From NCBI GenBank assembly GCA_963720755.1, contig CAVRGP010000015.1:256001-320000 (forward strand): DNA of 64,000 nucleotides. The letters run 5' to 3'. This DNA comes from an uncultured Chloroflexia bacterium (GTDB lineage Bacteria; Chloroflexota; Limnocylindria; Limnocylindrales; CSP1-4). Position 1 is the stretch's first letter, and each line of letters starts with the position of its first letter. This document shows positions 3,008-14,673 of the stretch, piece by piece. Made by a program: the position numbers and the translations under genes. The notes beneath the pieces were generated by a model, which searched no databases, was not told the origin of the DNA, and worked only from the letters and a program-made list of their open reading frames with translations.

Positions 3008-3520
3008 ATGACGACCCAGCGCATTTCGGTCACGGTCAATGGCGAGACCCACGAATCGGACGTCGAGCCTCGCCTCCTGCTCGTCCACTACATCCGCGAC
3101 ACGCTCGGCCTGACCGGCACCCACGTCGGCTGCGACACGAGCAATTGTGGCGCCTGCACCGTCCACGTCGATGGGAACAGCGCCAAGTCCTGCACGATGC
3201 TCGCCGTCCAGGCCGATGGCCGGGAGATCACGACGATCGAGGGGATGGCCACCGAGCCGACGCTTCACCCGCTCCAGCAGGCCTTCTGGGATCAGCACGG
3301 GCTGCAATGCGGGTTCTGCACCCCGGGCATGATCATGCAGTCAGCCTGGCTCCTCGCCGAGAACCCCGACCCGACCGAGCAGGAGATACGTGAGGGCATC
3401 AGCGGCAACCTGTGCCGCTGCACGGGGTACGTGAACATCGTGAAGTCCATCCAGCAGGCGGCCGCGGAGATGGCCGCCGCCGCCGAGACCCAGACCGGTT
3501 CGCCGGTCGCGGCCGGCTGA
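3008..3520 (+). CDS. coxS: Aerobic CO dehydrogenase small (2Fe-2S) subunit
   Basis: [10 protein letters not shown] and QCGFCTPG...GNLCRCTGY cysteine motifs; AAGGAGG SD. Confidence 0.95.
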
Positions 3521-3535
3521 GCGGGGAGTGACGAG

Positions 3536-5920
3536 ATGACGACACAGGCAGAGCCCCGTACCAGCGCCGCGATCGGTGGCATGGGTCACTCGGTCAAGCG
3601 CAAGGAGGACCCGCGGTTCATCCGCGGCCAGGGCGAATACATCGAAGACGTGAACCTGCCCGGCCAGTTGTGGCTGGACATCGTCCGCAGTCCGTATGCC
3701 CACGCCAAGATCAAGAGCATCGACGCATCCGAGGCCCTCAAGATCCCGGGCGTCGCCGCCGTCGTGACCGGCAAGGACCTGGAGGGCTACAAGCTCCACT
3801 GGATGCCGACGCTGGCGGGCGACATGCAGATGGTGCTCCCCGTGGACACCGTGATGTACCAGGCACAGGAGGTCGCGGCCGTCATCGCGACCTCCCGCTA
3901 CGCCGCCGCCGATGGTGTGGCCGCCGTCCTCGTGGACTACGAGCCGCTGCCGGTGATCGTGGACCCGTTCAAGGCGCTCGAGCCCGACGCGTTCGTCCTC
4001 CGGCCGGACCGTGGCCCGGACAAGCAGACCAACCATATCTGGCACTGGGAATCCGGCGACCGGGAGGCGACCGACGCCGATCTCGCCGCGGCCGAGGTCC
4101 ACCTCGAGCAGGACATCTATATCCCGCGGATCCACGTCGCCTCGATCGAGACGTGCGGCTGCGTGGCAGATTGGGATCCGGTCCGCGAGCAGCTCACCCT
4201 CCACATGACGTCACAGGCGCCCCACGCCATCCGGACGGTCCTGGCCCTCGTCGCCGCCGGAGCAGGCCTGCCGATCTCGGAGCAGAACATCCGGGTCAAG
4301 ACGCACGACATCGGCGGTGGCTTCGGGGGCAAGGTGCCGGTGTATCCGGGCTACGTCCTGGCCGTCGCCGCGTCATTCCTGACCGGAAAGCCGGTCAAGT
4401 GGATCGAGGATCGCTCGGAGAACCTCCAGGCTGACTCGTTCGCCCGCGACTACCACATGCACGTCGAGATCGGCGCGACCAAGGCCGGCAAGATCACCTC
4501 GCTCAAGGCGAAGACGATCGCCGACCACGGCTACACGGACGCGGCCGCGGACCCGTCCAAGTATCCGGCCGGCCTGTTCAACGTCATCACCGGGTCGTAC
4601 GACTTCCCGAACGCGTTCGTCGAGGTCGACGGCGTCTACACCAACAAGCCGCCTGGGGGCGTCGCCTACCGCTGCTCCTTCCGGGTGACCGAGGCGGTCC
4701 ACGCGGTCGAGCGGATCGTGGACATCCTGGCCCACGAGATCGGCAAGGATCCGGCCCAGCTCCGGATGGAGAACTTCATCCAGCCCGAGCAGTTCCCGTA
4801 CAAGACACCGACCGGCTGGTCGTACGACTCCGGGAACTACCCGGCGGCGCTCCAGCTGGCCATGGACATGATCGACTACCCCGGGCTTCGCAAGGAGCAG
4901 GCGGAGAAGCGCGCCAAGGGCGAGCTCATGGGCATCGGCATCAGCAGCTTCACCGAGATCGTCGGGGCCGGGCCGTCGCACGACTTCGACATCCTCGGCA
5001 TCAAGATGTTCGATTCGTGCGAGATCCGGGTCCACCCGACCGGCAAGGTCATCGCCCGGATCGGTGTCCAGTCCCAGGGCCAGGGCCACGAGACGACGTT
5101 CGCCCAGATCATCTCCGAGGAGCTCGGCTTCCCGGTCGGTGACATCAAGATCGAGTACGGCGACACGGACACGGCACCGTACGGCCTGGGCACCTACGCG
5201 TCGCGGTCGACGCCGGTCGCCGGGGCCGCGACGGCGATGGCCGCTCGCAAGATCCAGGCAAAGGCCCGGAAGCTTGCTGCGCACCTGCTCGAAGCCAACG
5301 AGGACGATCTCGAGTGGGAGCCCGGCAAGTTCAGCGTCAAGGGCTCGCCCGACCGCTTCAAGACGATCCAGGAGATCGCCTTCGCGGCCTACACCAACCA
5401 TCCGCAGGGGATGGAGGCCGGCCTGGAGGCGGTCGACTATTACGACCCGCCGAACCTGACCTTCCCGTTCGGTAGCTACATCTGCGTCGTCGATATCGAC
5501 AAGGGGACCGGCCAGGTCCACGTCCGTCGGTTCGTCGCCGTGGACGACTGCGGCAACATCATCAATCCGATGATCGTGGACGGCCAGATCCACGGCGGCC
5601 TGACCATGGGTCTCGCTCCGTCGCTGTACGAGCAGATCACCTACGACGAACTCGGCAACAACATGGCCGGCACGTTCATGGACTACCTCCTTCCGACCGC
5701 GGTCGAGGTCCCGTCATGGGAGACCGGCAAGACGACCACCCCGTCGCCGCATCATCCGATCGGTGCCAAGGGGGTCGGCGAGTCGGCCACGGTCGGGGCG
5801 CCGCCCGCCATCGCCAACGCGGTGGTGGACGCGCTCTGGCATCTCGGCGTTCGCAACGTCGACATCCCGATGACGCCCCAGAAGATCTGGGCCATCCTCC
5901 ACGAGAAGGGGATCAGTTGA
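3536..5920 (+). CDS. coxL: Form I aerobic CO dehydrogenase large (Mo-Cu) subunit
   Basis: Active-site loop AYRCSFR at 4664-4684 (form I AYxCSFR); RKEDPRF, GGGFGGK, QGQGHET, AKGVGES; MSL gene order. Confidence 0.96.
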
Positions 5921-5951
5921 CCGACGGTCACGGGACCGACGGGACCACCTG

Positions 5952-6989
5952 ATGGACGGCTCGGTCTTCGCCAGGGCTGCCGAACTCGAGGCTGCGGGTC
6001 GATCGTTCGCGGTCGCGACCGTCGTCGCGGTCCGGCGGCCGACGTCTGCCCGTCCGGGCGCATCCGGGATCATCCATCCGGACGGAACGATCGAGGGCTG
6101 GGTCGGCGGGAGCTGTGCCCAGCCGGTGGTCGTCCGCGAGGCGCTTCGGGCGGTCGCGGATGGGCAGCCGCGCCTGCTCCGGCTGTCACGGGATGGCCCT
6201 GGCGAGGGTCGCCGCGCTGACGGGGTGATCGAGCTGGTCATGACCTGCCACTCGGGCGGCACATTGGAGATCTACGTGGAACCGCATCTACCCAAGCCCA
6301 TGCTGTGGGTCGTCGGCACGACCCCGATCGCCGGTGCCCTGGCCGGTCTCGGGTCGGCGGCGGGCTGGCAGGTGACCGTCATCGACCCGGTCGCCGACCC
6401 TGACGCGTTCCCGATGGCTCGCGTTCACCAGTCGGCCGATATCCGGGGACTGGACCCGGAAGCGACCCCGTACGTCGTGGTCGCGAGCCAGGGGATCTGG
6501 GACGAGGAGGCCGTCGGACTCGCCCTGACCCGGGATGTCGCCTACGTCGGTCTGGTGGCGTCGCCGACCCGGGCCGCCGTGGTCCGTGACTGGCTGCGTG
6601 AGGAAACCACGGTCGGTGACGACCGGATCGCCGCGTTACGAGCCCCGGCCGGTTTGGACCTTGGCGCCGAGACAGCCGAAGAGGTCGCCCTGTCCATCCT
6701 CGCCGAACTCGTCCAGGTTCGGCGCGGCCGCGCCGACTTCGTCGCCGCGCCCGGTCCCGCGACGATCGCCGGTGCGGCGGCCGCCACCGCCCCGATCGAG
6801 TCCGTGGTCGATGACATCGTCCTGCTCGATCCGGTCTGTGGCATGACCGTCGAGCGCGCCCACGCCCGCCACCTCGCCGAGCACGACGGCGTCGTCTACG
6901 CCTTCTGCTCGATCGGATGTCGGACCCGGTTCATCAAGGAGCCGGCCACGTTCCTGGAGGCGAACTCCTACTCATCGATGCACGACTGA
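5952..6989 (+). CDS. XdhC/CoxF-family Moco maturation factor with C-terminal YHS domain
   Basis: GWVGGSC, CHSGG, APAGLDLGAETAEEVALSILAE (XdhC); DPVCGMTV...YAFCSIGC (YHS). Confidence 0.88.
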   Translation: MDGSVFARAAELEAAGRSFAVATVVAVRRPTSARPGASGIIHPDGTIEGWVGGSCAQPVVVREALRAVADGQPRLLRLSRDGPGEGRRADGVIELVMTCHSGGTLEIYVEPHLPKPMLWVVGTTPIAGALAGLGSAAGWQVTVIDPVADPDAFPMARVHQSADIRGLDPEATPYVVVASQGIWDEEAVGLALTRDVAYVGLVASPTRAAVVRDWLREETTVGDDRIAALRAPAGLDLGAETAEEVALSILAELVQVRRGRADFVAAPGPATIAGAAAATAPIESVVDDIVLLDPVCGMTVERAHARHLAEHDGVVYAFCSIGCRTRFIKEPATFLEANSYSSMHD

Positions 6990-7007
6990 CCAGCAGCCGG
7001 AGGCTCC

Positions 7008-7454
7008 ATGCATTTCGAAGGTTCCGTTCCGATCAAGGCATCCCGCGATAAGGTCTGGGCCTTCGTCATCGACCCGGAACAGGTCGGGCAGTGCGGACCG
7101 GGCGTCGAGAAGATCGAGGTCGTCGATGCGACCCACTTCAAGGCGACGGCCAAGGTCGGCATCGGCTTCATCAGCGCCCGCTTCGTCGTGGACATGACCT
7201 TCGCCGAGCAGGAACCGCCGGATCGGGCTCTCATCAAGGCCCACGGCCAGGCACCCGGGAGTGCGGTGGATGCGACCGCGGAGATGCGTCTGTCGGACGG
7301 CCCGGACGGTGCCACGGTCATGGATTGGAACGCGGACGTGAACCTGTCGGGCACGCTGGCGAGCGTCGGCGCGCGACTGATCGAAGGGACCGCCACCAAG
7401 ATGATCGGCCAGACCTTCGACTGCATGCGGACGAAGCTCGAAACGCCGGCCTGA
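7008..7454 (+). CDS. coxG: CoxG (SRPBCC family)
   Basis: VWAFVIDPEQVGQCGPG, GTLASVGARLIEG; position in the cox cluster. Confidence 0.88.
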   Translation: MHFEGSVPIKASRDKVWAFVIDPEQVGQCGPGVEKIEVVDATHFKATAKVGIGFISARFVVDMTFAEQEPPDRALIKAHGQAPGSAVDATAEMRLSDGPDGATVMDWNADVNLSGTLASVGARLIEGTATKMIGQTFDCMRTKLETPA

Positions 7455-7476: not shown

Positions 7477-8115
7477 GTGGAGCGCCTGCATCGGGTCGTC
7501 GGTCCGGCGTCGACCAACGTCCACATCCTTGCGGATCCGCGCTCACGCGAGGCGATCGCCATCGATACCGCGACGCCGTCGCTGGCATGGATCGCGGACG
7601 AGCTGGCCCAGCGGTCGTGGACGCTGAAGTTGATCGTGTCGACTCACGGTCACTGGGATCACATCGGGGACAACACGGCGGTGGCCACGGCGACCGGGGC
7701 AGAGATCGCCGTCCATCCGGCCGATCGACAACGGCTCACCGATCCGCAGCCCCTGTGGGCACCCTTCGAGATCGTGCCGTCCATCCCGGCCGTCGAGCTG
7801 GCAGAGGGCGGGTTCATCCGGTTCGGATCCATCCGACTCCGCGTCCTCCATACGCCTGGCCATACGGAGGGATCGGTCTGCCTGTCGGCCGATGACGACG
7901 GCCTGTTGTTCAGTGGCGACACCTTGTTCGAGGGTGGATGGGGTCGGATCGACCTGCCCGGTGGCAACGCGTTGGCCATGGCCGAGTCGATCACCCGTCT
8001 GGCCGGCCTCGAGGACCACGTCGGGGTCATGCCCGGCCACGGCAACGAGACGACGATCGGTCGCGAACGCGCCTGGATGGACCTGGTTCGCGACGGAGGC
8101 CGCCTCTTCGCCTGA
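7477..8115 (+). CDS. MBL-fold metallo-hydrolase (glyoxalase II-like)
   Basis: THGHWDHIG, HTPGHTEGS, FSGDTLF, PGHG motifs. Confidence 0.9.
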   Translation: MERLHRVVGPASTNVHILADPRSREAIAIDTATPSLAWIADELAQRSWTLKLIVSTHGHWDHIGDNTAVATATGAEIAVHPADRQRLTDPQPLWAPFEIVPSIPAVELAEGGFIRFGSIRLRVLHTPGHTEGSVCLSADDDGLLFSGDTLFEGGWGRIDLPGGNALAMAESITRLAGLEDHVGVMPGHGNETTIGRERAWMDLVRDGGRLFA

Positions 8116-8160
8116 TCGAACGCGGCGTCCACCCGGCGGGGCCAGGCGAGTCAGCGTCCG

Positions 8161-8194
8161 CGTTTGGTCCGCGTTTGTTCCCCGTCCGTAGGGT
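8161..8194 (+). promoter_or_regulatory. SARP/AfsR-type promoter: two 9-bp direct repeats ending 8 bp upstream of a -10 box
   Basis: CGTTTGGTC (8161-8169), CG, CGTTTGTTC (8172-8180), 8 bp, TAGGGT (8189-8194); 11-bp periodicity; no -35 hexamer seen. Confidence 0.7.
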
Positions 8195-8246
8195 CCGCAT
8201 CTCCGGCGCCCGTCAGCGTCGACGGGGATGCGAATCGGAGGGTGGC

Positions 8247-8840
8247 ATGCGACGGACCGTGATACTCACCATCGGGGCGATGCTGATCGTCGCCGCCTGC
8301 TCATCGAGTGGCAGTACCTCGGAGCCCGAGGCATCCTCGGCGCCAGGCGCCGGATCGTCCACGCCGGCGGTCCCGCCCGTGGCCAGCGTTCCAGGGGATC
8401 TTCCGAGCGTCGATCCGTCCGACCCGCTGGCCGGTTTCCGCGACAAGGACGCTACGGCGGTCGTCGTCATCGGCGATCAGCGCTATGAATTCAGCGGGCT
8501 CTATTGCGTGACCATGGGTGGCGCCCTCGGCGCCAAGAGTGTCGGCGGCGATCCGACCGTCAGCATCGACCTCCCGCCCCAGGATTGGGAGACATCGGCA
8601 GAGGGGTGGGACCCGCCGGCCGTCGTCGTGTCGATCGACGATCCGTATGCCAAGTACAGCGCCGACCCGCAGGCCGCCGAATACCTGACCAACATCAAGC
8701 CCGGCATGAGTCAGGTCGACAGCTTCACGACCGACGGCTATCAAGCCTCAGGGGCGGCTTCGTTCGTGGACGTCGCTGACTTCTCGTCGGGTCCCGTGTC
8801 GATCACAGGCACCTTCGAAGTCAGCTGTCCACGGCCCTAG
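8247..8840 (+). CDS. Lipoprotein with two-Cys beta-rich domain (LpqH-like)
   Basis: GGAGGG SD; MRRTVILTIGAMLIVAA-C lipobox; Ser/Pro linker; domain bracketed by LYCVT and GTFEVSC. Confidence 0.8.
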   Translation: MRRTVILTIGAMLIVAACSSSGSTSEPEASSAPGAGSSTPAVPPVASVPGDLPSVDPSDPLAGFRDKDATAVVVIGDQRYEFSGLYCVTMGGALGAKSVGGDPTVSIDLPPQDWETSAEGWDPPAVVVSIDDPYAKYSADPQAAEYLTNIKPGMSQVDSFTTDGYQASGAASFVDVADFSSGPVSITGTFEVSCPRP

Positions 8841-8865
8841 CGCGGCACCTACGAGAGGCTCCACG

Positions 8866-10212
8866 ATGGCCGATCCGTCGAGCTCGCCTGGCCGGGACGA
8901 AGCCACCGAGAAGTTGCTCGACGCTGCCGACTCGCTTGGGGTCGAGATCGACCGCGACGAGGCGGAGCGTTGGATCGAGGCCATGTCGGCCGATGCGTCC
9001 GGGACCGTCGAGATCGACGTGAACTCGGGCGTCTACGGCCACCGGGTCACGATGGTGGACTACGACCCCGTCCATCTCGCGAGATTTCGTCGGATGGCGG
9101 CGATCGTCGGGTTCGAGGACCGGCCACCGCAGGTCACGACGGCGCTCGCATTATCCGGCTCGGCTGCACAGAGCCGGATCCAGCGGTTCCCGGCCGACGC
9201 CGACTTCTTCGAGCGGATCCACATCCGGGCCGACACCCGGGAAGCGGCTTGCGACATCCTGGCGACGGTCATCCGGGACAAGGCACGGTCGACGGTCGGG
9301 CACGACGGGCACCGGCTCCAGGAAGTCAAGTTCGGGAGCTGGCCGGAGGACGGTGTCGCGGACGGCGTGGCCGTGCGTCGCGGATCGCCGGTCTCGTGGA
9401 CAGCGAAGCAGGTCGAGGCCGGCTTCGTCGACGTCGTGCGATCCGATGGCACCAGCGATCGATTGGGTTGGGGCGACGTCGCGCTGGATCCGGGCTGGTG
9501 CAAGCTCGACTGGGTCATCGCGGATCCAGTCGGCGGTGGCCTCGCCAACGTTTCGAACGTTCTGGATCCGACCTGGGAAGCCCCCGACGGGACGATCACC
9601 CCGCTGGATGGCTACCTCGATCCGTACTTCCAGGAGGTCTACCTCGAGACCGATTCGATCCCGCTGTTCACAAAACTCGTCAAGGAACTTGGCGCGGACT
9701 CGGTCGCCGAGTACGTGGAGCGGCTGACCGAGGAGGTCTACAAGTACACGGTCAAGGAACCCAATTACGGCAAGGCGGCCAGACGGATGTACAACATCTT
9801 CCGGTTGACCGGCCGCTACGTCGAGGCTGCCTACGTCCGCGAACTGTTCGACGAGCCGGTCACGGCGCTCTACCAGGTCGCCGCACTCCTCCGGACACTC
9901 GACGAAGCGGCCGACGCGGGCGACACGTTCGAGACGGACGCGATGGTCGGCCAGCTCGATCAGCTGATCATGTCCGCGATCACCGCACTCGAAGGGCGTG
10001 ACGAAGCCGAGATGGTCCGCCGGCTGCTTCACCTGCGCGACGCGATCAGCCGTCGTGCCGACGCCTCGGAACGGGCCGCCGACATCGCCGCGGTCCGCGA
10101 CGACGCCATGACCGCGGTCAACGTCTATTTCGAACGGGTGCTGACGGCCGTTCCCAGTATCGCGGCGTATCTGGATGACATCGCAGACCTGCACGGAGGG
10201 AGATCGGGATGA
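8866..10212 (+). CDS. Uncharacterised Pol-beta-superfamily nucleotidyltransferase-like protein
   Basis: LALSGS-x11-DADFF catalytic-like motif, candidate third Asp in CKLDWVI, helical C-terminus; no signal peptide; GAGAGG SD. Confidence 0.65.
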   Translation: MADPSSSPGRDEATEKLLDAADSLGVEIDRDEAERWIEAMSADASGTVEIDVNSGVYGHRVTMVDYDPVHLARFRRMAAIVGFEDRPPQVTTALALSGSAAQSRIQRFPADADFFERIHIRADTREAACDILATVIRDKARSTVGHDGHRLQEVKFGSWPEDGVADGVAVRRGSPVSWTAKQVEAGFVDVVRSDGTSDRLGWGDVALDPGWCKLDWVIADPVGGGLANVSNVLDPTWEAPDGTITPLDGYLDPYFQEVYLETDSIPLFTKLVKELGADSVAEYVERLTEEVYKYTVKEPNYGKAARRMYNIFRLTGRYVEAAYVRELFDEPVTALYQVAALLRTLDEAADAGDTFETDAMVGQLDQLIMSAITALEGRDEAEMVRRLLHLRDAISRRADASERAADIAAVRDDAMTAVNVYFERVLTAVPSIAAYLDDIADLHGGRSG

Positions 10213-10832
10213 GACAGCGTCGCAAGTTGAACGGGTCCGTGTTCCTCGGCATCGTGTTGATGGCCGGTGCGTGCAGCAGCGGATCGACGACCGAACCGTC
10301 GGCGGCGCCGGATCTCGGAGCCGGTCCGTCTCAGCCGACCTCGGTCTCGACGCCGGGCAGCACGGCCGCCCCGGCATCGGATGGCCCAGCGGCCGACGGT
10401 GCGCTTGGGGCGGTCGTCAACGTCGCCGGCCACACGTACACGTTCCTGCCCGGACCCTATGGTGTCTGTGGTTATCGAGACGACGGCGCGATCACCTTCT
10501 CCGGCGGCACGAGCGACTTCGACCCGGCGGTCGGCGGTGGGGCGAGCGCAGCATTCTTGATCCAGATCGACGGCTGGCAGGATCCCGATCCGGACCTGGC
10601 CAACGACGGCGACCCCTACATCAATATCAGCGACTATGTCGATGGCCTGCACTGGAACTCCGGCCTTGGCCCGTTCACAGGTGGTGTTACCTACGCGGAT
10701 AGTCACATCGAGTCGTCGACGCTCGTGGGCGGCCGGGCCGAAGGATCGGCCCTGTTCGTCGAGCTGCAGAAAACGTCGGGCCAGGAGCCGCCCGTGTCGA
10801 TCCCGGGGACGTTCGAGATCACCTGCGAATGA
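10209..10832 (+). CDS. Lipoprotein, paralogue of 8247-8840
   Basis: ATGA overlap with the NTase; VFLGIVLMAGA-C lipobox; GVCGY...SIPGTFEITCE matches SITGTFEVSC. Confidence 0.8.
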   Translation: MRQRRKLNGSVFLGIVLMAGACSSGSTTEPSAAPDLGAGPSQPTSVSTPGSTAAPASDGPAADGALGAVVNVAGHTYTFLPGPYGVCGYRDDGAITFSGGTSDFDPAVGGGASAAFLIQIDGWQDPDPDLANDGDPYINISDYVDGLHWNSGLGPFTGGVTYADSHIESSTLVGGRAEGSALFVELQKTSGQEPPVSIPGTFEITCE

Positions 10833-11719
10833 GCTGGCGTCGATATCGGGTGGCTGACGTGTCGCTGACCGGGGGCTTTCGGACGTGGATGATCATCATG
10901 GCCTGCGCGCTGGCCGCCTGCGGGGGGACGTCTGATCCGGCCGGTGGCGGATCGGCCTCCGATCCGGGTGGGCCACCCGCCTCACCCGAGACGACGAACG
11001 ACAGCAGTGGCGATAACGCGCCGGTCACCGCCACAGTCGACGGCACGACCTACGGGTACCCGGCCGGGACCTGTGACGTTGGCGGCGATCGGGTCCAGGT
11101 CCATGCAGCCCGAATGGACGTACTGGCCACGGTCGATGTCCGATGGCTCGGCGACGGCGGCAGGGAGACGTTCGATGTCGTCCACACGGGTGGACAGGAC
11201 CCGCAGCCGCCGACCCCGTTCGACCTTCATGCGAGCCCGAACGATGCGGACACCACCTGGGACGTGAGCGTCGACGGGAATAGCGCGGTGATCGTGGCCC
11301 GGATGCTCGACCGATCGCCTGCAGGAGCCGGCGGATACCACGACGTCACGATCAACGTCCAGTGCAACGAGCGTGGGTTCGGCGGCTTTGAGGCACCCGA
11401 GACGAATGTGCCTCAGACGGAGCTGCCGGTGGCGACGTCGGCGGGCGAGAGCGCGATCGCTCTCGAGCTGGGCGGCACGACCTACTCGTGGACGTACCCC
11501 GGCTGTGCGGCGGCCGAAGCCAGCGGGTTCGTGGCCGTGAACCCGGCGCTCGACCGGCTGTTCGTGACGGCCGGTGAGATGACGCTGAGCCTGGCCGATG
11601 GCACCACCTGGACGGCGACGGGCGCGCAGCTCTCGATCTCCGGTGGTTCGGCGACCTGGACGGGGACGATGGCTTCGACCTCCGGCTCACAGCCGGCGAC
11701 CCTCACGATCGCTTGCTGA
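10829..11719 (+). CDS. Lipoprotein with two tandem copies of the two-Cys domain
   Basis: ATGA overlap; IIMACALAA-C lipobox; VDGTTY..GTC...INVQC and LGGTTY..PGC...LTIAC. Confidence 0.75.
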   Translation: MSWRRYRVADVSLTGGFRTWMIIMACALAACGGTSDPAGGGSASDPGGPPASPETTNDSSGDNAPVTATVDGTTYGYPAGTCDVGGDRVQVHAARMDVLATVDVRWLGDGGRETFDVVHTGGQDPQPPTPFDLHASPNDADTTWDVSVDGNSAVIVARMLDRSPAGAGGYHDVTINVQCNERGFGGFEAPETNVPQTELPVATSAGESAIALELGGTTYSWTYPGCAAAEASGFVAVNPALDRLFVTAGEMTLSLADGTTWTATGAQLSISGGSATWTGTMASTSGSQPATLTIAC

Positions 11720-11754
11720 GTGTGTGCCTGACCGGGTAGGTCAAGTGGAGCAGG

Positions 11755-14673
11755 TCAAGACTGACCGGCGATGAGCCGCAACTCCTCGACCAGCCGGCCG
11801 GCGAACACGGTCGTCGGGATGGAGCTGAGTTCCGGCCGCTCGCCCGTGGCAGCCAGACCGGCGGCGATCCGAGCTCGGTAGCCGGGCGTGGCGGCGTGGC
11901 GATCATCCAGCGGGATCCATCCGTACTCGCGATGGACGCGATCGAACTGGTCCAGCAGTTGTGCCGCCATCTGCCAGGCTTCCCGGTCGATGAGGAGCGG
12001 AAGCGCGCCAAAGGCATTGAGCACGAAGTAGATCGCGTGCTGCCGTGCGGTGAGATCGAGTGCTTCGACGATGGCCTTCGCGGCTTCGGCCGGATCGCCC
12101 CATTTCGCCTCGACGAGACCACGCTGGGCCAGGGCTCCCGACCGGACCCGGCGGTCGTTGGCCCGATCGGCAAGGATCAGCGCCCGGTCGAGGTGCGCTC
12201 GCGCTGTCGCCTCATCGTCGTCGTGCCAGGCTGCGAGTGAGAGATGCCGATGGCCGACCGAGGCGATCCGCGGGTAATCCTCGGCCTCGAGGAAGGCGGT
12301 GGCGCCGATCAGGATGGCCTCGGCCAGATCCCGGTCGGCCCCATAGGCGGCCTGCATCCCGATGACCACCCGGCACTCCGCAGCGGCGACCCGGTCGCCA
12401 GCCGCCTCGTAGGTCGAGATCGCCTGGTTGATCAGCGAGACACCTTCGCTCGGCCGACGGTGGATCTGGACGCGGCCCATGCCGTACAGGCCGCGCGCTT
12501 CGCGACGCCGGTCGCCCAGTCGGATGGCCAGGTCACGAACCTCCGCGCTCATCGCTGCCGACTCGTCGTAGTGGCCGACGAAGAACGCCATCCCACTCGC
12601 TGCGGCCAGGATGTCGATCCGGCTCGAGTCGTCGCTGGCGAAGGCGAGACACTCCCGGAGCCAGCGCTGGCCCTCGGAAGCGAGGAAGCGACTGATCCAG
12701 AACTGCGCCAGGCCGGCCGCGATCTCGGCCGCCTGGGCGGCCCGATCAGTGTCGAGGAGGTGGCGCATCGCGATGCGATGGTCGGCGATGCTGGCCTCGA
12801 CCTCGTTCAGTGCGGCTGCTTCCATCGACGTGAAGGCAGCGGCATCGGTCGCTCGGGCGGCCGCGACGGACCAATCGGCATGTCGGTCGCGGGCGGCTCG
12901 CGACTGACGCGAGGAAGTCAGTCTCCGGAGCCCGAAGTCGCGCACCGGCTCGAGCATCCGATACCGCACGGCACCGTCGCGGGCTCGTTCCGGCACGAGC
13001 AGTGATGCCTCGACGAGTCGACACAGCGTGTCGTCGATCGTCCTGGGGTCGTCGGTATCGACGCAGACGCTGCCGAACGCGCCCGCCGTGAACGTGTCGA
13101 CGAAGGCGGACGCCCTCGCCAGGACCTGTCGATCCACGGTGTCGAGCAGCGCGACACTCCGGGCGATCGCGTCGGCAACCGACGCATCGTCGTCGGGGCC
13201 TGACCCCTCCGGGCGTGCGCCGGCCGGCCTCTGTCGGCCGGCGAAGGTCAGACCGGCCGCTCGGTGCAGATCGAGCGAGACGACCCGCCGTGCTGCCAGT
13301 TCCACGGCGAGCGGCATCCCACCGGTCCTCCGACAGAGGGCGAGCAACTCCTCGGCGTCGGCAGCCCTGAGGTCGATCCGTGGATCCGCGTCCCGGACTC
13401 GATCGGCCATCATCTGGAGCGTTGCCGACTCCCACATGCCGTCGGTCATCTCGGGCAGTGACAGCGGTCGGAGCGGCCAGACCGTCTCGCCGGCGATACC
13501 GAGACGCCGGCGGCTCGTGGCCAGGATCCGCACCCGGTCGCCGTGGAGTCGCGTCCCGAGCAACCGGCGGACCTCGGCAATCACATGCTCGCAGTTGTCG
13601 ATGATGATCAATGCCGGACGCGGCGCAAGGAGTCGGTAGAGCTCGTCGAGTTCGTCGACCCGGTCATCGATCGCCAGGACCGAGGTGATCGTGGATAGGA
13701 CATCGGCCTCGGTCCTCGTGCCCGAAAGCCTGACTAGCCAGACGCCGGCATGGTGTGCGTCGAGACGTCGGGACCCGAGCTCGATCGCGAGTCTGGTCTT
13801 GCCGATGCCGGGTGGTCCGGTGATGGTGACGAGATGATGACGGTCTGCGGCCGCGCTGACCGCGGCAAGGTCGCCCTCGCGGCCGACGAAGGTCGAGTCC
13901 ACGAACGGGACGTTATGCGCTCCGCTTGCGCCGGGCAGGTCGATCAACGCAGGATCGTGGTTGTGGACCCGCGTCTCGAGCGCCTGGAGACGCGGCCCGG
14001 GGGTCACCGCCAGCTCCGCGTCGAGCGTCTCGCGAGCCGTCTTGAGCGTCGCCCGGGCGTCGGAGGCTCGGCCCGCCATGGAGTAGGCCAGCACCAGTTC
14101 CTCCCACAGCGACTCGTTGAGCGGCTGTTCGGCGACAAGCTGTCGGAGGAGCGCGATCGATTCCGACACGCGGCCCTGCAGGTTGAGCGCACGCGCCTGG
14201 GTGGTCCGAGCAGCGATGAGCAACTCGACCAGGCGGTCACGCTCGCCGCGTGCCTCCTCGACGTCGGCCAGCTCCGGGTATGGCTCACCGCGCCACAGTC
14301 GTGCCGCGCGGGCGCCGATGTCGCCGGCATCCCGGAACCGGCCCTGGGCCAGATGGCGTCCGGCGCGAGCGACCAGGGTGGTGAACTGGCGGACATCGAA
14401 CTCATGTCCTTCCAGATGCAGCAGGTACCCGTCCCGATGGAGTTGGATGACACCGGGCACCCGGCGTCGGAGGGCGGACAGGTGGACGTGGATCGCCCGG
14501 CCCGCGGTCGCCGGCGGTGTCTCGCCCCACATCCGGTCGATCAAGGTATCGATCGGGAGTGGCGCCTCCGGGTTCACCAGGAAGGACGCGAGGAGGCGTC
14601 GGTGGGCGGGACGCAACGGGATCGCCTGTCCGTCAGACAGCACGATCAGGGTTCCGAGGGCCTCGAATCTCAT
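11755..14673 (-). CDS. AfsR/SARP-family transcriptional activator (wHTH-BTAD, STAND ATPase, TPR)
   Basis: Likely start MRFEALGTL at 14673; LIDRMWGETPP..HVHLSALRR (wHTH); LWRGEP, QPLNESLW (BTAD); FVGRE, GPPGIGKT, IIDNCEH; TPR-like tail. Confidence 0.9.
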   Translation of the reverse strand: MRFEALGTLIVLSDGQAIPLRPAHRRLLASFLVNPEAPLPIDTLIDRMWGETPPATAGRAIHVHLSALRRRVPGVIQLHRDGYLLHLEGHEFDVRQFTTLVARAGRHLAQGRFRDAGDIGARAARLWRGEPYPELADVEEARGERDRLVELLIAARTTQARALNLQGRVSESIALLRQLVAEQPLNESLWEELVLAYSMAGRASDARATLKTARETLDAELAVTPGPRLQALETRVHNHDPALIDLPGASGAHNVPFVDSTFVGREGDLAAVSAAADRHHLVTITGPPGIGKTRLAIELGSRRLDAHHAGVWLVRLSGTRTEADVLSTITSVLAIDDRVDELDELYRLLAPRPALIIIDNCEHVIAEVRRLLGTRLHGDRVRILATSRRRLGIAGETVWPLRPLSLPEMTDGMWESATLQMMADRVRDADPRIDLRAADAEELLALCRRTGGMPLAVELAARRVVSLDLHRAAGLTFAGRQRPAGARPEGSGPDDDASVADAIARSVALLDTVDRQVLARASAFVDTFTAGAFGSVCVDTDDPRTIDDTLCRLVEASLLVPERARDGAVRYRMLEPVRDFGLRRLTSSRQSRAARDRHADWSVAAARATDAAAFTSMEAAALNEVEASIADHRIAMRHLLDTDRAAQAAEIAAGLAQFWISRFLASEGQRWLRECLAFASDDSSRIDILAAASGMAFFVGHYDESAAMSAEVRDLAIRLGDRRREARGLYGMGRVQIHRRPSEGVSLINQAISTYEAAGDRVAAAECRVVIGMQAAYGADRDLAEAILIGATAFLEAEDYPRIASVGHRHLSLAAWHDDDEATARAHLDRALILADRANDRRVRSGALAQRGLVEAKWGDPAEAAKAIVEALDLTARQHAIYFVLNAFGALPLLIDREAWQMAAQLLDQFDRVHREYGWIPLDDRHAATPGYRARIAAGLAATGERPELSSIPTTVFAGRLVEELRLIAGQS

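Follow-up and report, generated by a model that had tools for sequence, protein, structure and literature searches.

The window analysed here is a 64,000-nt stretch of DNA (contig CAVRGP010000015.1, positions 256,001 to 320,000) from an uncultured soil Chloroflexia bacterium, and all genomes compared are metagenome-assembled. Near its beginning, four genes on the forward strand, encoding three lipoproteins (Lpp1, Lpp2 and Lpp3) and a nucleotidyltransferase (NTase)-fold protein, converge on the gene of a large SARP-type regulator. Judged from sequence and from comparison among related loci, regulator and operon probably make up a cluster-situated transcriptional switch dedicated to this one target. 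Related loci, genomes and contigs are cited below by our own numbers (L, G and C, respectively), and positions are those of the window. The features of the locus are:

7477-8115: gene of a metallo-beta-lactamase (MBL)-fold hydrolase, which precedes the operon and follows a cox/xdh-type cluster
8160..8181, + strand: proposed SARP box, 11-bp direct repeats GCGTTTGGTCC and GCGTTTGTTCC, overlapping the -35 region and aligning with sites in L074, L097, L090 and L002
8189..8194, + strand: putative -10 hexamer TAGGGT (TANNNT), predicted, 7 bp after the box
8237..8242, + strand: Shine-Dalgarno-like GGAGGG, read from the sequence, 4 nt before the Lpp1 ATG
8247..8840, + strand: Lpp1, lipoprotein of 197 amino acids (aa) with lipobox VAAC and two Cys in the mature part
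8866..10212, + strand: NTase-fold protein of 448 aa, Mg662-like, candidate catalytic residues G98 S99, D111 D113 and D215
10209..10832, + strand: Lpp2, lipoprotein of 207 aa and Lpp1 paralogue, its start overlapping the NTase stop (ATGA)
10829..11719, + strand: Lpp3, lipoprotein of 296 aa, perhaps a Cys-bounded domain in two repeats, with a start that overlaps the Lpp2 stop (ATGA)
11755..14673, - strand: large SARP-type regulator of 972 aa (winged helix-turn-helix, BTAD, NOD ATPase, helical C-terminus), convergent with the operon

The order of the genes, their strands and their junctions agree with a first-pass annotation of this DNA, as do the two ATGA overlaps, which lie at 10209-10212 (NTase/Lpp2) and 10829-10832 (Lpp2/Lpp3). 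The gap from Lpp1 to the NTase gene is 25 bp, and 35 bases separate the end of Lpp3 from that of the regulator gene on the opposite strand. A spacer of 131 bp lies between the MBL-fold hydrolase gene and Lpp1, and a two-domain GNAT gene is found beyond the regulator gene. The G+C content of the window is 65-72%, without a compositional break at the locus.

In the regulator, two N-terminal domains pass their Pfam cut-offs: Trans_reg_C, an OmpR-type winged helix (residues 15-73, 29.1 bits against 26.2), and BTAD (residues 92-236, 92.5 bits, E 4e-26). The ATPase models stay just below theirs (AAA_16, 26.9 bits against 32.6; NB-ARC, 22.4 against 23.5), and Walker A (GPPGIGKT) and Walker B (IIIDN) motifs can be read in the translation. 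The C-terminal 491 aa returned a weak TPR_2 match alone (E 0.035, 14.7 bits). Of the winged helix, BTAD, ATPase and tetratricopeptide repeat (TPR) architecture proposed in the annotation, the first two parts hold, the ATPase is probable and the TPR putative. The AfsR equivalog model NF053617 covers residues 1-466 only, and its score (89.2 bits, E 1.7e-25) does not reach the cut-off of 1430. By its two defining N-terminal domains, the protein is assigned to the SARP family and not to the AfsR equivalog. Orthologues are found in G068 (about 89-90% identity) and G445 (66-67%), and as a fragment in L004 (58%).

The spacer ahead of Lpp1 holds the element that would tie the regulator to the operon. 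A repeat search returned a tandem direct repeat, GTCCGCGTTTG twice at 8156-8177 with 11-bp spacing, and GCGTTTAG recurs with the same spacing in the spacers beside the SARP-type genes of L074, L097, L090 and L002. Aligned with the window, these four sites match column for column and the T, A and final T of the -10 are invariant. The full element spans 35 bp (8160-8194), with two 11-bp repeats of core CGTTT[A/G]G followed by TANNNT at a fixed distance; the same -10 hexamer is also present in G068 and G445. The SARP-type direct repeats noted earlier in this promoter are real and kept in related loci. Their significance comes from the conserved arrangement of two repeats plus -10 and not from the bare 11-mer, which is not rare (2 matches in the window with at most 1 mismatch, 1.87 expected). 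With a strict regular expression for this arrangement, the only matches in the 1.58 Mb of loci fetched were these 5 sites, the window's own copy among them, and the 3.01-Mb genome had 1; the A-type pattern was found in none of 401 genomes sampled from the class.

A position weight matrix (PWM) built from the five aligned sites scores the window box at 33.1-34.5, the runner-up in the 3.01-Mb genome reaching 13.5-16.6. Because the only strong box in the genome is the one here, the regulator looks dedicated to this operon. The matrix also finds sites on which it was not trained, in L004 (26.4 and 25.0), G445 (20.1), G068 (34.0) and at a second position in L002 (15.7). All eight loci with a homologue of the regulator carry the element (window, G068, G445, L002, L004, L074, L090 and L097), and none of the four same-clade loci that have long flanks but lack a SARP gene does (L001, L092, L093 and L003; no PWM score of 11 or above). 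In every case the box reads into an NTase-containing operon, either directly, as in the window, where it would drive the cargo genes, or behind the gene of a LuxR-family STAND regulator that heads the operon, as in L074, L090 and L097. The window's genome also encodes an 882-aa LuxR-AAA16-TPR regulator (C11:5141-8552), 57% identical to the one heading the L090 operon; it is followed by the gene of a 237-aa lipoprotein and adjoined by another large STAND regulator, of the cyclase type.

Extra copies of the box were observed before a luciferase-like monooxygenase gene (L004:3503-3537) and before a BBE-type FAD oxidase gene (L002:9960-9994), and in those two genomes the regulon therefore exceeds the NTase operon.

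According to PMC10936776, direct repeats bound by SARPs are spaced 11 or 22 bp and lie next to the -10, and the afs box consists of two 11-bp repeats over -40 to -19, overlapping the -35. The window site fits this spacing and position rule as given there. Its layout agrees with the published SARP sites, and we take the proposed link from regulator to operon to have good comparative support. The element might instead serve another regulator as operator, or be a promoter feature without relation to SARPs, the convergent SARP then controlling a different target. Such an account would draw on the nature of the link, which is made by co-occurrence and analogy, on the many STAND regulators encoded by these genomes and on the position of the SARP gene, which varies among loci: L074, L090, L097 and L004 have it upstream and divergent, the window, G068, G445 and L002 downstream and convergent. 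We find it improbable given the distribution of the box (8 of 8 loci with a SARP, 0 of 4 without), the match to the layout published in PMC10936776 and the fact that the genome offers the SARP no second site.

The NTase-fold protein was annotated at first as an orphan. This label has to be dropped because 6161 proteins match it at E<=0.001 in a word-indexed search; the best 120 are 64-100% identical to it, all unnamed and none with a Pfam domain. By record titles the hosts are mostly Chloroflexota (Limnocylindria, Anaerolineae), with a few Acidimicrobiia, and identity across classes is 65-80%. An exhaustive profile search gave only 592 representatives (50% clustering) at E<=1e-3, which makes the family compact, and no bridge to a named family. 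Among 160 sequences, 84 positions are at least 98% conserved, G98, S99, D111, D113 and D215 included, and the Pol-beta motif hG[GS] x9-13 Dh[DE]h is present as LSGS...ADADFF with G98, S99, D111 and D113 invariant. The window protein has no match in Pfam, NCBIfam, PADLOC (E<=0.1) or PDB sequences, none of 22 family members matches Pfam even at E 10, and a PHROGs search gave nothing useful. Searching PDB sequences with the profile and the core region found no solved NTase, only a chance arsenate reductase row (E 1.1). An AadA-like PF01909 protein from the same genome was tried as a relative and rejected (hhalign probability 0.1).

Fused NTase-like forms also exist: in P0242 (1291 aa) the NTase-like part is preceded by AbfB, F-box-associated, C-type lectin and PLAT domains, which together look eukaryote-like, and in P0181 (1067 aa) by a PQQ_2 propeller.

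The fold of the protein was approached through an AlphaFold model (pLDDT 66, pTM 0.60; core 74-94 for residues 110-250). Its elements follow the order helix-strand-GS-helix-strand-DxD, with GS at the end of strand 90-97 and DxD at the start of strand 111-121, and D215, which lies in strand 212-219, is the candidate third catalytic carboxylate. Foldseek against the PDB returned 4ams, 4xul and 4amq, which their PDB titles identify as Megaviridae 'ORFan' nucleotidyl transferases, with probability 1.00 and E 1.6e-6 to 5e-5. The rows of OAS1, DncV and poly(A) polymerase came far behind (OAS1, DncV and MB21D2 at probability 0.07-0.51). In a VIA search 4xul_A ranked first (Z 15.2, root-mean-square deviation 4.8, 305 residues aligned over model residues 66-443), the other rows being generic helical bundles on the C-terminal domain. 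Among viral models (BFVD), all 17 matches at E<=1e-3 are giant-virus or virophage proteins, and an Atlas lead taken from a stored homologue, a Nucleocytoviricota PF01909 cluster (0.88), agrees with these searches. Because Foldseek, VIA and the viral models agree, the predicted structure is confirmed as an NTase fold, with Megavirus Mg662 as its nearest structural match.

In all three lipoproteins a basic N-terminus and then a hydrophobic stretch precede the Cys of a lipobox (VAAC, AGAC and LAAC in Lpp1, Lpp2 and Lpp3, respectively), and each mature domain has two Cys; the LPAM_1 model reaches 17.2 bits on Lpp1, under the Pfam cut-off of 20. They had been described as three related proteins. 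All three lipoprotein signals are there, and the kinship of Lpp1 with Lpp2 is clear (29% identity, E 4e-12), but the link of Lpp3 to the other two is marginal (E 0.045). Lpp1 has 22 homologues besides itself (39-81% identity), the orthologues in G068 and G445 being 81% and 52% identical. The lipoproteins encoded first in L002, L004 and L092 form one orthologous group, which is weakly related to Lpp1 (E about 1e-5). Only 3 homologues of Lpp2 were found in the word-indexed search, and Lpp3 has homologues in L004 (E 6e-17) and G445 (58%).

In G068 and G445 the MBL and GNAT genes that border the window locus also border its syntenic counterpart. At about 90% DNA identity, the G068 locus contains the genes of Lpp1, the NTase, Lpp2 and the SARP and is without Lpp3. 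In G445 the order is box, Lpp1, a small protein with two transmembrane segments (2-TM protein), NTase and Lpp3; then come an additional protein of 458 aa, Lpp1-like at one end, and the SARP. As gene sets differ at a syntenic position, the regulatory frame is stable, with turnover in the exported cargo. The 2-TM protein gene is conserved between the Lpp1 and NTase genes of orthologous loci, and on this comparison the window has evidently lost it. The remark in the first-pass annotation that no transmembrane transducer is encoded is accordingly true of this window, although related loci do carry the 2-TM protein. Selection is purifying throughout, with dN/dS values between window and G068 of 0.06-0.08 for the NTase, 0.16 for the SARP, 0.21 for Lpp2 and 0.25 for Lpp1.

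Several further observations were made on these loci. The Lpp3 region (10841-11751) is replaced in G068 (L179) by about 22 bp, a clean presence/absence difference. Against G068, dS is 0.17-0.24 for the NTase and Lpp2 and 0.43-0.62 for flanking genes; codon constraint or recent exchange could account for the low values. G445 has two NTase copies, 77-78% identical to that of the window (L001, on C3 at about 1.37 Mb, and L183, C3:300000-319000). One is in the syntenic SARP/lipoprotein locus and the other beside copper genes (PCuAC, SCO1 and multicopper oxidase); after this second copy come a serine recombinase and a prim-pol/AAA_25 gene, suggestive of a mobile-element border. Upstream of the window locus (3008-7454) is a CoxS/CoxL-type molybdoenzyme cluster, found at the same place in G068 and G445; Pfam confirms XdhC (with a YHS domain) and CoxG in it, and CoxS and CoxL are named from their translations only.

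Neighbours of the NTase gene were surveyed in the best 80 + 80 family loci out of 500-plus genomes, with neighbouring open reading frames clustered at strict cut-offs and clades taken from a FastTree tree. Across the 165 loci compared, neighbours sort by clade, among them a DEDDh (RNase T/Rv2179c-like) exonuclease (35), comEA (27) and an aldehyde dehydrogenase (22). The association of the NTase with such regulators and lipoproteins, as supposed in the annotation, turns out to belong to one part of the family. The eight box-bearing loci share regulator, box and an NTase operon that encodes exported proteins of the Lpp1 family or of other kinds, and comparison supports their pairing as a recurring unit rather than chance neighbours. 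The family at large is without it: among the first 80 genome loci a SARP was found in 3, Lpp3 in 1 and Lpp1 or Lpp2 in none. Only in the window's own clade (clade A; 14 tree rows, support 97) does the NTase go together with SARP/LuxR-STAND regulators and exported proteins; the members of this clade have as neighbours the 2-TM protein just upstream of the NTase, SARP- and LuxR-type STAND regulators, a flavin amine oxidase, PD40 propeller lipoproteins and unnamed exported proteins. In the window's genus the NTase family is present in only 5 of 24 sampled genomes, as copies 61-64% identical to that of the window and from another clade.

The gene of the DEDDh 3'-5' exonuclease lies directly upstream of the NTase gene in two separate clades (35 of 165 loci, among them L066:6193-6768, L029, L037 and L073), divergent in one and co-directional in the other. 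With midpoint rooting the pairing could be ancestral, and it hints at a nucleic-acid or oligonucleotide substrate for the NTase. One neighbour cluster (c139) was discarded as a gene, being a shadow open reading frame of the exonuclease.

Taken as a switch, the locus would work as follows. By analogy with AfsR, a dimer of the SARP domain would bind side by side on the two 11-bp repeats at 8160-8181. These overlap the -35 of a promoter whose -35 is poor and whose putative -10 is TAGGGT, and the bound SARP would recruit RNA polymerase, giving one message through Lpp1, NTase, Lpp2 and Lpp3. The NOD ATPase and the helical C-terminal domain may gate this binding in response to a signal. The output would be small exported lipoproteins with disulphides, their set varying between loci, together with one conserved cytoplasmic enzyme with the fold of Pol-beta-superfamily NTases, which in orthologous loci would be translationally coupled to the small 2-TM protein. 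Sequence and comparison directly show the structure of the genes, their domains, the conserved element and its occurrence together with the SARP gene, the enzyme fold and the purifying selection. Binding of the box by the SARP, the single operon transcript and the transfer of nucleotides by the enzyme are what we infer from them.

Some observations weigh against such a dedicated switch and its proposed output. Besides the nature of the regulator-box link already mentioned, the 7-bp gap between box and -10 is about 1 bp off the AfsR layout as read, and the -10 is a predicted one. The eight loci come from related lineages, and L097/L098 and window/G068 are near copies, so they are not eight independent events. 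G068 shows net frame changes in both main genes, of +2 bases in the NTase (opposite 9438-9453) and +1 in the SARP (opposite 14453). They may stem from decay or from mistakes in assembly; as dN/dS stays low on either side of them, they would be frameshifts of very recent date or such mistakes. As to the enzyme, the confidence of the model is middling, TM-scores to Mg662 are only 0.37-0.46 and the protein lacks a sequence-level match to any solved NTase (about 10-16% identity to Mg662). Finally, most of the NTase family lies outside this context, and therefore neither the SARP nor the lipoproteins can be needed for the core function of the enzyme.

What the switch would turn on is a matter for more cautious wording. 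Our tentative first choice is an inducible envelope-associated response, in which the enzyme might transfer a nucleotide to a small molecule or to the 3' end of an RNA and the lipoproteins might bind something outside the membrane. It ranks ahead of a small-molecule cluster, which in turn ranks ahead of a second-messenger or conflict role.

A cluster for the processing of a small molecule, or for resistance to it, strikes us as rather doubtful. The STAND protein would sense the compound and the NTase would nucleotidylylate it, in the manner of aminoglycoside or lincosamide NTases; oxidases and transporters like those of related loci would supply the rest of the pathway, with the lipoproteins binding the compound on the outside. 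A flavin amine oxidase follows the NTase gene in four clade-A loci (L002, L089, L090 and L092), the extra boxes stand before the BBE-type FAD oxidase of L002 and the luciferase-like monooxygenase of L004, and MFS transporters lie nearby in L092 and L003; PMC10972967 presents SARPs as mainly cluster-situated activators of metabolite clusters. None of those enzymes, however, is found in the window, G068 or G445, and no known resistance NTase family matches. The NTase is also equally conserved beside quite different neighbours in the other clades, which argues for a substrate common to all of them.

The annotation had pictured a self-contained signalling or conflict module, in which a second messenger made by the NTase feeds back on the STAND regulator or hits an invader and the lipoproteins form a recognition set. 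The fold does fall in the OAS/cGAS/poly(A)-polymerase-like group, with low-probability Foldseek rows for OAS1 and DncV, the regulators are NLR-like STAND proteins, and lipoprotein content differs among close relatives. The DEDDh exonuclease found with the NTase in two other clades (35 of 165 loci) could make with it a maker/degrader pair. We nevertheless give this picture little credence. No operon protein has a PADLOC match, PHROGs offered none for the NTase, no effector gene is present, no copies were found on plasmids or phages, and the chromosomal position is stable across genera. The NTase is among the most conserved genes of the locus (dN/dS 0.06-0.08), unlike typical defence genes, and the lipoproteins are under relaxed purifying, not positive, selection (0.21-0.25). 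Nothing at the locus points to defence or pathogenicity. A further reading would see in the NTase a nucleotide or oligonucleotide synthase working at the membrane with the 2-TM protein and the lipoproteins, in trans-envelope signalling under SARP/LuxR-STAND control, with the DEDDh enzyme as degrader. We regard it as a long shot; if true, it would add to bacterial nucleotide signalling a new family whose relatives are found in giant viruses and virophages.

Little is understood so far of large SARPs, and the dedicated switch proposed here would provide a simple model of a large-SARP/NLR-like activator outside Actinobacteria, with one conserved operator and one small operon. The locus is also a concrete case of lipoprotein genes gained and lost inside a conserved regulatory frame. 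The NTase represents a big, strongly conserved bacterial family without a Pfam or NCBIfam model, and as its sole solved structural relative is the Megavirus 'ORFan' NTase, the function of either would inform that of the other.

Among known systems, AfsR and the large SARPs of Streptomyces share with the window regulator the order of N-terminal domains, and their target likewise has two 11-bp repeats over the -35, near a weak -10. Here, in contrast, the equivalog score is 89 bits against 1430, the TPR is weak, the host belongs to the Chloroflexota and the target, apparently a single one, is a lipoprotein/NTase operon and not a metabolite cluster or afsS. PMC10972967 describes SARPs as exclusive to actinobacteria, and our literature search found no description of this gene set or of BTAD/NB-ARC proteins in Chloroflexi, nor a paper on Mg662. 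The LuxR-STAND genes behind the box in L074, L090 and L097 recall the SARP-to-LuxR cascades, such as PimR to PimM; in the window's genome, unlike in those loci, the LuxR-STAND orthologue is on contig C11 with its own lipoprotein gene and the box would drive the cargo directly.

For the cargo, the small two-Cys lipoproteins may resemble mycobacterial LpqH (19-kDa), a lead only, given by an Atlas score of 0.88 for the Lpp2 orthologue; the window lipoproteins have no Pfam Myco_19_kDa (PF05481) match. CBASS CD-NTases, OAS and cGAS have the same broad architecture as the NTase-fold protein, a catalytic core plus a helical domain, but it differs from CBASS CD-NTases in giving no hidden Markov model match (PADLOC, E<=0.1), in having lipoproteins and no effector or Cap genes as neighbours, and in its very high conservation. 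The best structural match over nearly the whole protein is to Mg662 of Megavirus chilensis (4xul, 4ams, 4amq) and virophage V21-like proteins, from which the window family is set apart by an identity of about 10-16% to Mg662, without a sequence match, and by being bacterial and chromosomal. New with respect to all these systems are the host phylum of the SARP (Chloroflexota by genome titles), the kind of target and an unstudied enzyme family with only giant-virus structural relatives, while the promoter logic is known SARP logic.

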